Virus genome (UHGV): UHGV-0121072
Length of the DNA stretch: 39,201 bases
From: a virus
Strand: one strand, 5' to 3'
The notes under the pieces are model-generated. The model searched no databases, was not told the DNA's origin, and worked only from the letters and a program-made list of their open reading frames with translations. Position numbers and translations under genes: made by a program. The first letter of the stretch is position 1. Each line of letters starts with the position of its first letter. Below are positions 1 through 39,201 of the stretch, in pieces.

Positions 1-1626
1 CCCGGTCGTCTTGTTGTATTCGAGGTGTCCCGCCACTCCAGTGTCACCTGTAAAGCGACACTTGAGCAGACGAAGTTGAACAGTATTAGGAGTATCTCCT
101 TGCTGGTTCCGCTCAAGGGCAATAATAGTATCAGACAGTTGACGTAGAGCACCAGACCCACGTAGGTCAGTGATTGAAACAGGTCGTCCTTCTTCATGCG
201 ATTTACCTTTCTCCGGGTTCTTTAGGTGACATATGACCACGACAACCACACCCTTCGTCTTCGCAAACTTCTTGAGACGAGTCATGATGCGGTCAATGGT
301 CTTACGTTCATCTGAGTTATCTTCCATGCCAGACACAACGATTGAGATGTGGTCCAGCAGTATGACGTCACAATCGAGACCATCCACCATGTAGGCTAAC
401 TTAGCGAACAAGGTGTCTTCCTCTGACTCTGCGAATGAATCGTACAGGTGGAACTTATCGTCTCCGAACAGCTTGTCATACCACTCGTCGAACCGTCCAT
501 CCTCTAAGATGGCTTGCTTCAGTTCCTTGCTCTGGCGTAGACGAACGTTATTGTCCAGACCCATAAGGTCTTGAACTGTTTCCTCTACAGCCTCTTCAAG
601 CATAGCCATACCAACACGCTTACCACCCCTGCCCCACTCTAATAGGAGCTGACGGACGAAGGTAGACTTACCCATGCCCGACCCTGAAGTCACCATGATA
701 AGCTCACCAGCTCGCGCACCGAGGGTCATCGCGTTGAGTGTTGTGCATGACGAGAACATGAGACCTTCAGTCTCTGCCTTAAGCATTGCCTCTCGTGTGC
801 GGTCCTTCAGACTTGCTGCTGATACCACTCCAGCCGGGACGAAAGGTTTAGCGTTCCAGATAGCATCGGTGATGGCCTTGAAGTCCTTGGCCTGAAGTGC
901 AGCGTTGGCGTCTTTATATCCGTTGATGAACGCAACCTTAACACGACCTGCTGGTAATACTGGAGCTGCATCCTCAATAGCCTGACGACCCGGTTCATCC
1001 ATGTCGAACATCAAGATTATCTCTTCGAACTGGTCGAGATACTCAAGGTTAGCAGCCATCGCTTTCTTCGCAGACTTGGCGCCTAACGGAAGCGAGACCA
1101 CAGGATACTTCCCGTCCTGCACCTGAGCAACAGACAAAGCGTCTATCTCACCCTCAGTGATGACTATCTTCTTACCACCGTTCCAGAGCTGAGAGCCGAA
1201 CAACATGTCAGACTTGACACTACCGATAGCCGTGAAGTTCTTCTCAGCGTCTCGGACTTTCTGTCCTACCTTGGTCCCGGACCTGTCGTAATAATCAGCG
1301 ACCTGAACCATCTTGCCACCCATGTTACCCACCCAGTAGCTGTACTTCTTGCATATCTCCATGCTTAGACTACGGGCTGGTAGTGGGACATATCGTCCAG
1401 CGTTCTCACCGAACGTTAACAGATTGCTCACTTGCTTTCTACCTCCTGAGGGTGTGTATCCCTCGGTCAACTCCATGTCTCCTTTCTTCCATGCGACTGA
1501 AGGGTCACAGGCGAAGCAGTACATGTGCCCATCTGAGTAAACACCATTGGCATCCGAGGACCCACAGTCTGGACACTGGGTGTGGTACAGAAAGACACTC
1601 TCGTCGTCTTTGTCATCGTATGACAT
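1..1626 (-). CDS. gp4: DNA primase/helicase, N-terminal 542 codons (partial; continues at 39127..39201)
   Basis: Minus-strand ATG at 1626..1624 with AAGGAG SD; my translation [25 protein letters not shown]... has the Cys4 zinc motif, GSGMGKST Walker A and [27 protein letters not shown], matching T7 gp4. Runs off the left edge in frame. Confidence 0.9.
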
Positions 1627-1676
1627 TGGTCACTCCTTAATCACAAACGCGAACAGAGGGACAGGACTCATTGTCC

Positions 1677-1698
1677 CATCCCTAAGGTGATAGTTTAG
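1677..1698 (-). promoter_or_regulatory. Phage RNAP promoter-like element, variant (minus sense CTAAACTATCACCTTAGGGA), upstream of gene 4
   Basis: Matches the genome consensus except 2 substitutions at -4/-3; same position as a T7 gene 4 promoter. Confidence 0.4.
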
Positions 1699-1910
1699 GC
1701 TTTGAAGAACTGAGCCAACTGGTTGGCTTTGGTGTCAGCTTGACGTGCCTTCATGCCCGCTTCCAGTGACGCTATGTTCAACTTGTCAGCCCGCAGCAAA
1801 GCATCAGCCCGCAGCAAAGCAGTCTTCTTTTCTACCTTTCGTTCCAGAACCGCAGCACGACGATAGCCACGCACCACCAGACGACCGAGAAATTCGATAA
1901 GTTTAATCAT
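1695..1910 (-). CDS. Hypothetical 71-aa protein, predicted coiled-coil, contains tandem ALLRAD repeat
   Basis: ORF with ATG at 1910 and AAGGAG SD; lies between lysozyme and gene 4 where T7 has gene 3.8; no recognisable motif. Confidence 0.45.
   Translation of the reverse strand: MIKLIEFLGRLVVRGYRRAAVLERKVEKKTALLRADALLRADKLNIASLEAGMKARQADTKANQLAQFFKA
1787..1822 (-). repeat. 18-bp perfect-but-one tandem duplication (cagcccgcagcaaagca t/g) inside the 71-aa ORF
   Basis: Two adjacent copies seen directly; encodes ALLRAD twice. Confidence 0.8.
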
Positions 1911-1934
1911 TTAGTTGTTCTCCTTTAGAGTTTA

Positions 1935-2396
1935 TTAACCGTGGTCAGATGTAACCAGTTCATTCTTGGTCCACCATCGCTTCACGTCGAAACTCGGACA
2001 GGCTTTGGCTGCTACTGAATGATGGGCCATTAGCTCTGCATTAGGGTACTTACTCATAAGCTCCTCCAGCTTGATGCGTAGGGAGTTCATCTGAGCAGGA
2101 GTGAAGTTAGCTTCAAACTTGCCCTTAGCGTCAATTCCACCTACAAGGCAGACGCCTACAGACCGTGAGTTCCAGTCCTTAACGTGTGACCCTACGACAT
2201 TGACCGGGCGACCCTCTTCCACAGTACCATCGCGCTTGATGATAAAGTGGTAGCCTACGTCCAGCCAGCCTTGCTGCTTGTGCCACATACGGATGGTCTC
2301 TACCCCGATGTCCATCTCTGGCTTGGTAGCCGAACAGTGAACGAAGATAGCGTCAGTCCGGGACCGTGGGTTGAATTGCACCTTACTCACCATCAT
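1935..2396 (-). CDS. gp3.5: T7 lysozyme / N-acetylmuramoyl-L-alanine amidase
   Basis: 153 aa; DAIFVHCSATKP, WLDVGYHFIIKRDGTVE, VCLVGGID, KACPSFD almost identical to T7 gp3.5. Confidence 0.93.
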   Translation of the reverse strand: MMVSKVQFNPRSRTDAIFVHCSATKPEMDIGVETIRMWHKQQGWLDVGYHFIIKRDGTVEEGRPVNVVGSHVKDWNSRSVGVCLVGGIDAKGKFEANFTPAQMNSLRIKLEELMSKYPNAELMAHHSVAAKACPSFDVKRWWTKNELVTSDHG

Positions 2397-2787
2397 ACAC
2401 CACCAGTTCTACTACCACTAGATTCAGGTGCTGGGTGAATCTTTGTGCGTCCGTGGTGTGCATCTGGAGACGCTTATGATTGAAGACGTGTGAGTTGCTA
2501 ATCTTCACGTAAACTTCGTCAGGCTTGCCGTGGACGATGAACGTCTGATCCACGGCAATCTTGTCGATTGTCAGGCGCTTACTGGTGATGGAAACTTCAG
2601 GAACCGCAGTCACAGGGTGGACTTCAGGTTTCACTTCCTCAAAGCGCCAGCGGAACATACCGTTGATGAATTCGTGGTTCTCTTCGGTAGCAACAAAGGT
2701 CTCACCAATTGGCGCGCAGTACTTGCTTAGCATTTCCGCAACGGAACGGTTCCAAAACGTATTTAGAACACGATAAGTCTTACTCAT
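2383..2787 (-). CDS. Hypothetical 134-aa protein with no T7 counterpart
   Basis: ATG at 2787 overlaps gp3 stop (ATGA) with AAGGAG SD 8 nt upstream; the track's upstream M is a GTG. No motif recognised. Confidence 0.5.
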   Translation of the reverse strand: MSKTYRVLNTFWNRSVAEMLSKYCAPIGETFVATEENHEFINGMFRWRFEEVKPEVHPVTAVPEVSITSKRLTIDKIAVDQTFIVHGKPDEVYVKISNSHVFNHKRLQMHTTDAQRFTQHLNLVVVELVVYDGE

Positions 2788-38856: not shown

Positions 38857-38877
38857 GGTTAATCCCCCGTTTAATCT

Positions 38878-38916
38878 AATCATAAAGGCCACTCGCTGTG
38901 AATGACCTTGAGTCTA
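38878..38916 (-). promoter_or_regulatory. Conserved stem-loop, candidate RNase III site (upstream of gene 5)
   Basis: aatcataaaggccac tcgctgtga atgaccttgagtcta, third near-identical copy of the family. Confidence 0.5.
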
Positions 38917-38919
38917 GAC

Positions 38920-39084
38920 CTAGAAGTCTGTACGTAAGAAGTGGTACATGAACTTACGGTTAGCCTTCTTCCATGCCTTAGAGTCGAACCTTTGGTCTCC
39001 CAGAATGTTGGACAGGCAGGTTGCTTCATCGCTCCACCATTTGTACATGAACCGATGGTAGCGAGCTTTAAGTTTCTTTAGCAC
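38920..39084 (-). CDS. Candidate 54-aa basic protein with GTG start (gene 4.x position)
   Basis: GTG at 39084 with GGAGG SD 7 nt upstream; ends ...RTDF; between gene 4 and gene 5. Confidence 0.3.
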   Translation of the reverse strand: MLKKLKARYHRFMYKWWSDEATCLSNILGDQRFDSKAWKKANRKFMYHFLRTDF

Positions 39085-39126
39085 TAACGGTCCTCCATAA
39101 AATTCTTATAATCAGCTATATCACGC

Positions 39127-39201
39127 CTAGAAGTCTTGATCTTCCCACGAGCCGCTATCCTCTTCTCCGCTGCTGCCAGTGAAGCTAATTGGTTCAAGCC
39201 A
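39127..39201 (-). CDS. gp4: DNA primase/helicase, C-terminal 24 codons (continuation of 1..1626 across the window boundary)
   Basis: Minus-sense WLEPISFTGSSGEEDSGSWEDQDF* matches the acidic T7 gp4 C-terminus and joins in frame to ...LEYNKTTG ending at position 1. Confidence 0.85.
   Translation of the reverse strand, partial: WLEPISFTGSSGEEDSGSWEDQDF

Follow-up and report, generated by a model that had tools for sequence, protein, structure and literature searches.

T7 (NC_001604) replicates its DNA as concatemers, which its terminase cuts at fixed sites, and the direct terminal repeat is duplicated in the process. Close to the right end of its concatemer junction T7 carries a class II RNA polymerase pause/termination signal, ATCTGTT, which has been reported to be strictly sequence-specific for T7 RNA polymerase. 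Phage K1F (NC_007456) is the type species of the genus Kayfunavirus and its terminal repeat has been cited as 179 base pairs (bp); the ends of phages SH3 and SH4 have been mapped by run-off sequencing (PMC4925675). Here we analyze the virus sequence UHGV-0121072, a stretch of 39,201 nucleotides that we call the window throughout, and in which the gene for the primase-helicase (gene 4) is divided between the two ends. In our reading, a K1F-like podophage of the T7 family from a human gut metagenome has a linear genome of double-stranded DNA, and the window is one unit length of it, closed into a circle by the assembler and with its ends at positions 12641 and 12411. We put the probability of this reading at about 0.93.

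K1F has the same gene order as the window from gene 0.3 to gene 19.5, and most of its proteins are 92-100% identical to those encoded there. The first 43 bases of the K1F genome and the 12 bases ahead of its right-end repeat are identical to the window, the promoter core is common to both, and both are without gene 0.7 and the promoter phiOL. The core proteins of T7 are 33-79% identical to those of the window. T7 and the window have in common a single-subunit RNA polymerase, one coding strand, three gene classes and a T7-type terminase, as well as short-repeat arrays around the terminal repeat and a phiOR-type promoter ahead of the right end. Present in T7 and missing from the window are phiOL, gene 0.7 and a number of small genes.

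Gene order and coding strand

Genes were mapped by tblastn of the K1F and T7 proteins on the reverse complement of the window, rotated to start at 12641. The K1F proteins mapped in 37 of 41 cases, collinear from gene 0.3 to gene 19.5 and all on the minus strand. Collinear matches were also obtained for 35 of the 52 T7 proteins, on the minus strand only, and the T7 core genes (RNA polymerase, ligase, 2.5, 3, 3.5, 4, 5, 6, 8-19 and 19.5) all mapped. Genes 1.1, 1.2 and 5.5 were added by PHROG and Pfam matches. Without exception, the open reading frames (ORFs) of at least 100 amino acids (aa) with a match among the T7 or K1F genes are encoded by the minus strand. The same holds for the phage-type promoters: 11 matches to the core ACTATCACTATAGGGA were found with at most 3 mismatches, all on the minus strand, where 0.28 would be expected by chance.

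An earlier note on this DNA had described it as a complete T7-like genome with every T7 gene class in canonical order. The collinearity of the core genes on one strand bears this out. The genome is however K1F-like (Kayfunavirus) and not T7 proper, and like K1F it is without some non-essential T7 genes, among them gene 0.7; several small genes of T7 are likewise missing from both.

Gene 4 runs across the ends of the window

Translation of the minus strand from 1626 to 1 gives 542 stop-free codons with the C-terminal end ...LEYNKTTG, and the ORF runs off base 1. Read from 39201, the minus strand continues in frame with base 1 as TGG CTT GAA and so on, which encodes WLEPISFTGSSGEEDSGSWEDQDF, up to a stop codon at 39129..39127. 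The joined gene 4 product has 566 aa. The two parts are as follows.

1..1626, minus strand: gene 4 primase-helicase, codons 1-542 (N-terminal 96%); K1F gp4 98.6%, T7 gp4A 62.8%.
39127..39201, minus strand: gene 4 primase-helicase, last 24 codons (WLEPISFTGSSGEEDSGSWEDQDF) and stop, in-frame continuation from base 1.

On the rotated sequence T7 gp4A gave one tblastn high-scoring segment pair (HSP) over the 1/39201 junction, with 62.8% identity across residues 3-567, and K1F gp4 likewise gave one HSP over the junction, with 98.6% identity. The DNA alignment of K1F to an 800-bp construct made across the junction is unbroken and has no gap. A longer construct of 4 kilobases (kb), joining window 2000..1 to 39201..37202, is an exact substring of scaffold_871 of the assembly ERZ28576932, and on this scaffold a gene caller gives an intact gp4 of 566 aa with the Pfam domains Helic-prim_T7_N, Toprim_2 and DnaB_C. 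The wrap of gene 4 across the window ends that the earlier note had proposed is correct to the base, with 542 codons on one side and 24 on the other.

We also compared K1F 12600-12700 with window 39127-39201. The gp4 of the K1F RefSeq record (NC_007456) has a divergent and longer C-terminus, with 586 aa in all, and relative to the window the K1F DNA has -1 and +2 indels directly ahead of the conserved GACTTCTAA (Asp-Phe-stop). The end of gene 4 in the window retains the T7-like acidic ...EDQDF. Judged from these alignments, the K1F record may be frameshifted near the gp4 C-terminus.

Source contig and independent assemblies

Exact-protein look-ups led to the source of the window, the SPAdes contig NODE_842_length_39256_cov_191.8 of ENA assembly ERZ651867, which has the same coordinates and, by its name, a mean coverage of 191.8. 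The first 55 bases of this 39256-bp contig are exactly its last 55, and the remainder is identical to the window. An end overlap of exactly k is what a circular path in a de Bruijn graph, here with k=55, usually leaves behind. The window itself has no end overlap because these 55 bp (k=55) had been removed from the source contig beforehand.

At least three further full-length assemblies, with a unit length of 39178-39201 bp, break at differing points. The same phage is carried by ERZ28576932 scaffold_871, which is 39256 bp long and has the 1/39201 junction intact. The MEGAHIT contig k99_132448 of ERZ918972 (run ERR2017764, human gut metagenome, PRJEB21528) is 39277 bp long and begins at window position 30738, and k99_116139 of ERZ27262147, also of 39277 bp, begins at 36250. 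The Logan contig ERR2017764_7978 measures 39208 bp and its ends share 30 bases (k-1) at window 20335-20364. Across the assemblies the phage is the same, with zero mismatches outside one tandem array. That the window is a circular permutation cut at an arbitrary point, as had been claimed for it, therefore holds: the source contig has the 55-bp overlap, other assemblies break at 30738, 36250 and 20335-20364, and one scaffold spans the 1/39201 junction.

The predicted terminal repeat and genome ends

The earlier note had also placed the genome ends and the terminal repeat within 12206..12950, collapsed to one copy, with a repeat size of 150-250 bp. Homology to T7, K1F, SH3, SH4, EcoDS1, Vec13, TM1 and Peacock places the repeat at 12641..12411, inside that region. 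The assembled 231 bp agrees with the predicted size, but is a lower bound.

12411..12641, minus strand: predicted direct terminal repeat, collapsed to one copy of 231 bp in the assembly, placed by homology to phages with mapped ends.
12404..12410, minus strand: ATCTGTA directly past the repeat end, counterpart by sequence match of the T7 class II pause signal ATCTGTT.
12678..12716, minus strand: short-repeat array (ACCTACAGT / CCTACGG) found by repeat search, upstream of the repeat on the right-end side of the junction.
12316..12385, minus strand: short-repeat array (4 x ACCTACAGT) found by repeat search, just inside the left end and downstream of the repeat.
13294..13309, minus strand: phage RNA polymerase promoter at the phiOR position between genes 19 and 19.5, directed toward the repeat, exact match to the core ACTATCACTATAGGGA.

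The left end, at 12641 on the minus strand, reads TCTCACAG and is preceded by TTTGAGACCACA at 12653..12642. Base 1 of K1F (TCTCACAGTTCAAGAACCTCAAGTCTCCCCATAGGCCCTCTTT) aligns to the window minus strand from 12641 onward. The run of TTTGAGACCACA followed directly by TCTCACAGTTCAAG is identical in the window, K1F, TM1, SH3, SH4, EcoDS1 and Vec13, and T7 has TCTCACAG; in those same six phages the right-end copy of the repeat also starts with TCTCACAG after TTTGAGACCACA. The T7 left end, TCTCACAG...CCCCATAGG, is as in the window. The records of Peacock (ends by PhageTerm), HC12 and HC13 start at the base homologous to 12641, and the phiYIO1-1 record ends one base short of that homologue.

At the right boundary the window reads ...GAGTCCCT and then ATCTGTA, which puts the end of the repeat at 12411, plus or minus a few bases. 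The T7, SH4, EcoDS1 and Vec13 records end ...GAGTCYCT, corresponding to window position 12411, and in both T7 and the window the repeat ends ...GTCCCT and is followed by ATCTGT. Both repeat boundaries in the window are identical in sequence to those of phages with mapped ends. When recomputed from the ends of the records, the terminal repeats are 160 bp in T7, 178 bp in K1F and 179 bp in TM1. If 12641 and 12411 are the physical ends, the genome in the virion would measure about 39432 bp, plus 23 bp for every extra unit of the tandem array described below.

The surroundings of the repeat resemble those in T7. ATCTGTA occurs only once on the coding strand of the window, and the depositors of PE3-1 annotate the homologous CTATCTGT as concatemeric junction. 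By analogy with T7, ATCTGTA may act as a pause signal with the K1F-type polymerase. Six of the ten exact copies of ACCTACAGT in the window flank the repeat, where 0.53 would be expected in the whole window; similar arrays, of CCTAAAG, are seen at the left end of T7. The promoter at 13309..13294 has the same position as phiOR in T7.

Several observations weigh against this placement or qualify it. The positions of the two physical ends are drawn solely from homology. The right boundary varies by 1-4 bases among records, being 1 base earlier in K1F, 1 later in TM1 and 4 later in SH3. ATCTGTA matches 6 of the 7 bases of the strict T7 consensus ATCTGTT, and the last base differs, as it does in K1F, TM1 and PE3-1. 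A search of the interval from the repeat to gene 0.3 (11846-12410, up to 5 substitutions) gave no phiOL-type promoter; the same search of K1F 179-1113 gave none either, and located phiOL in the T7 control. Finally, the length of the repeat is left unfixed by a tandem array inside it, which has 3 units in both SPAdes k=55 contigs and 2 in the pair of k=31 Logan contigs, each of which comes from a run of its own.

The 23-bp array and the length of the repeat

12472..12543, no strand assigned: perfect tandem array with a 23-bp period and 3.1 units (plus strand: ACCTATCGTTGACCAATAGTCCC), inside the terminal repeat, found by repeat search.

Between the k=31 and k=55 contigs this array is the sole difference over 13.9-15.7 kb, with otherwise 0 mismatches. 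It is absent from the repeats of K1F, TM1, SH3, SH4, EcoDS1 and Vec13, and an exact search of the IMG/VR viral contigs for a two-unit array found nothing. The repeat has 231 bp here and 178-191 bp in the relatives because the latter are without the array; relative to the 178 bp of K1F, too, the difference comes from the array. As assembled, the 231-bp repeat is the longest of the Kayfunavirus repeats compared.

We consider it possible, though on balance unlikely, that the phage and its ends are as described and that the repeat is longer than 231 bp, the array having more than 3 units or varying in the population while the assemblies report a minimum limited by k. By our own reasoning, the shortest path through a looped graph with a 23-bp period holds 2.1 units for k=31 and 3.1 for k=55; these are the numbers observed. 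The MEGAHIT length of 39277 bp, equal to 39178 + 99, suggests 2 units from the length alone; two units could here also be a collapse, we reason, since small-k contigs are fed into later rounds of that assembler. However, exactly 3 true units fit all of the observations as well, because the k=55 graph would then be free of loops and the k=31 graph would still collapse to 2. Fully periodic 55-mers need at least 3 units in real reads. For the SPAdes sample 3 is therefore a secure lower limit, and the actual count may exceed it or may vary. More tentatively still, we suggest that the array, absent from all the Kayfunavirus repeats compared, is a recent expansion to at least 3 units and possibly variable in copy number.

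How the window came to be closed into a circle

In the linear genome that we propose, the virion DNA would start with TCTCACAG (12641, minus strand), run through genes 0.3 to 19.5 and end with a second copy of its first ~231 bp. By homology to T7, replication would yield head-to-tail concatemers with one copy of the repeat at each junction. A T7-type gp18/gp19 terminase would cut these at fixed boundaries, the repeat being duplicated in packaging as we infer from T7 biology; in T7, pausing of the phage RNA polymerase at an ATCTGT motif just past the repeat aids this step. As the terminal copies are identical and the concatemers hold one copy per junction, the assembly graph would be circular. 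The de Bruijn graph would accordingly have closed to a circle, which SPAdes put out cut at an arbitrary k-mer inside gene 4 and with the 55-bp overlap that was trimmed later. A circular graph cut inside gene 4 leaves gene 4 wrapped across the window ends and a single copy of the repeat at 12411..12641.

The breakpoints differ among the assemblies, and taken alone this would also be expected of a population packaged by headful, in which the genome would have no fixed ends, its circular permutation being real and accompanied by terminal redundancy, and the circle would represent it correctly. We regard headful packaging as very improbable. The overlaps at the breakpoints are exactly k or k-1 (55 and 30), which argues for an assembler artefact; the large terminase is of the T7 type, 98.8% identical to K1F gp19 and with a Pfam Terminase-T7_RNaseH-like match; and the end sequences of relatives whose fixed ends have been mapped, by run-off sequencing or PhageTerm, are retained exactly at the junction. 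Arbitrary breakpoints with k-sized overlaps point to circularisation by the assembler and not to biological permutation, and they rule out a chimeric or integrated context.

The least probable reading, to which we give next to no weight and in favour of which no observation was found, is that the window is incomplete, chimeric or integrated and the wrap of gene 4 a coincidence of unrelated ends: where the earlier note had considered non-contiguous, integrated or chimeric flanks, the independent ERZ28576932 scaffold_871 carries the 4-kb junction exactly, on which ground we rejected a prophage or chimera, the unit length is 39178-39201 bp in at least three more full-length assemblies, K1F and T7 align gap-free over the junction, and no integrase gene, host gene or tRNA gene was found in the window.

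Other genes of the window

Besides gene 4, the following genes frame the proposed ends or belong to the replication, packaging and structural set, in the order of the proposed linear genome. Percentages are identities to the K1F or T7 protein.

11501..11845, minus strand: gene 0.3 (Ocr-like), the first gene past the predicted left end; protein match and Pfam ocr.
7337..10018, minus strand: gene 1, single-subunit RNA polymerase of 893 aa; K1F gp1 98.4%, T7 gp1 62.3%; Pfam RPOL_N and RNA_pol.
36685..38856, minus strand: gene 5, DNA polymerase, uninterrupted; T7 gp5 55.8%; 723-aa gene call with DNA_pol_A.
31776..33344, minus strand: gene 8, portal (head-tail connector); K1F 98.3%, T7 67%.
29623..30663, minus strand: gene 10, major capsid protein; K1F 97.4%, T7 70.7%.
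16449..18782, minus strand: gene 17, tailspike with a K1F-like N-terminal adaptor and a foreign receptor-binding part, by protein and DNA comparison.
15883..16146, minus strand: gene 18, small terminase subunit; K1F gp18 100%; Pfam DNA_Packaging_2.
13409..15172, minus strand: gene 19, large terminase subunit of the T7 type; K1F gp19 98.8%, T7 gp19 65.4%; Pfam Terminase-T7_RNaseH-like.
12953..13111, minus strand: gene 19.5, 52 aa, the last gene ahead of the predicted right end; protein match.

For the DNA polymerase, the 735-aa form with a GTG start (ORF 36685-38892) gave no match in the exact-protein look-up, whereas the 723-aa call matched. Gene 5 of K1F is annotated as a join of two pieces around an ORF for an HNH endonuclease; that of the window is uninterrupted. 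In the region 11800..13450 a scan for sigma-70 promoters and terminators gave nothing above the shuffled background; visual inspection shows an A1-like TTGACT and an A3-like TTGACA.

Tailspike and inserted genes

The gp17 tailspike is K1F-like in its first 226 residues only. The alignment with K1F is limited to residues 1-226, and the endosialidase part of the K1F protein is not in the window tailspike. The receptor-binding part (16449-18200) has 86-88% DNA identity to Sashavirus BDX09P1, three myoviruses of 155 kb (RPN242, PC3 and PH4) and nithesis, a phage of 72.6 kb, and it had no Kayfunavirus match in the collection searched. There is a weak Pfam match of gp17 to BNR_2 (sialidase-like). 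Judging from these DNA identities, the tailspike looks like the product of a cross-family exchange of the receptor-binding module.

On its minus strand the window has several small genes that are extra relative to K1F. One of them encodes a 75-aa DUF3850/ASCH-like protein (28522-28749; a PHROG 'RNA-binding protein') and separates the tail genes 11 and 12, which abut in K1F. Between genes 18.5 and 19, where K1F has only 30 bp, there is a 53-aa ORF with a good ribosome-binding site (15169-15330), for which no Pfam or PHROG family was found. Between genes 2.5 and 3, a position at which K1F has no gene, lies an HNH_3 homing-endonuclease gene of 149 aa (3221-3670), with 41-49% identity to T7 gp2.8 and gp7.7. 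Also on the minus strand, a 149-aa protein of PHROG 4382 (unknown function) is encoded at the position of T7 gene 5.9 (35588-36037), and an early 115-aa protein (10799-11146) gave only weak helix-turn-helix matches (Brinker, transposase helix-turn-helix).

Relatives and classification

In the practice of the International Committee on Taxonomy of Viruses (ICTV) a genus is delimited at 70% nucleotide similarity, a value that the window reaches with many Kayfunavirus records (92-95% identity over 75-100% of each half). By its sequence the phage is a K1F-like Kayfunavirus (Studiervirinae, Autographiviridae). The best DNA matches have 92-93% identity over at most 81% of the early half and 94-95% identity over 97-100% of the late half. 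The closest deposited genomes are those of the Escherichia phages P762, vB_EcoP_LNA3, vB_EcoP_F, phiHAO1-1 and SD6, with 92-95% DNA identity over 75-100% of each half, and no deposited record reached 95% identity over the full length. As the best matches are only 92-95% identical, the phage probably represents a new species of a well-known genus. These five genomes were mostly deposited in arbitrary circular permutations too, and the three-unit array is absent from all of them. Permutation like that of the window is seen in many of the Kayfunavirus records deposited.

Implications

A circularised assembly is a routine consequence of a terminally redundant linear phage genome, and nothing here is mechanistically new; in biological terms the phage is an unremarkable new member of Kayfunavirus found in the human gut. 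The benefit is chiefly practical: the contig should be made to begin at 12641, read on the minus strand, and the repeat should be appended once more at its end. In the rotated genome gene 4 is annotated intact, and comparisons within the T7 family start at the true left end. The window also offers two worked examples for the reading of phage assemblies. In one, an end overlap of size k together with differing breakpoints separates circularisation by the assembler from biological permutation; in the other, k determines the copy number that an assembly gives for a perfect tandem array inside a terminal repeat. If it is true that the copy number of the 23-bp array differs between molecules or samples, the array would represent natural length variation inside a repeat used in T7-type packaging and recombination.

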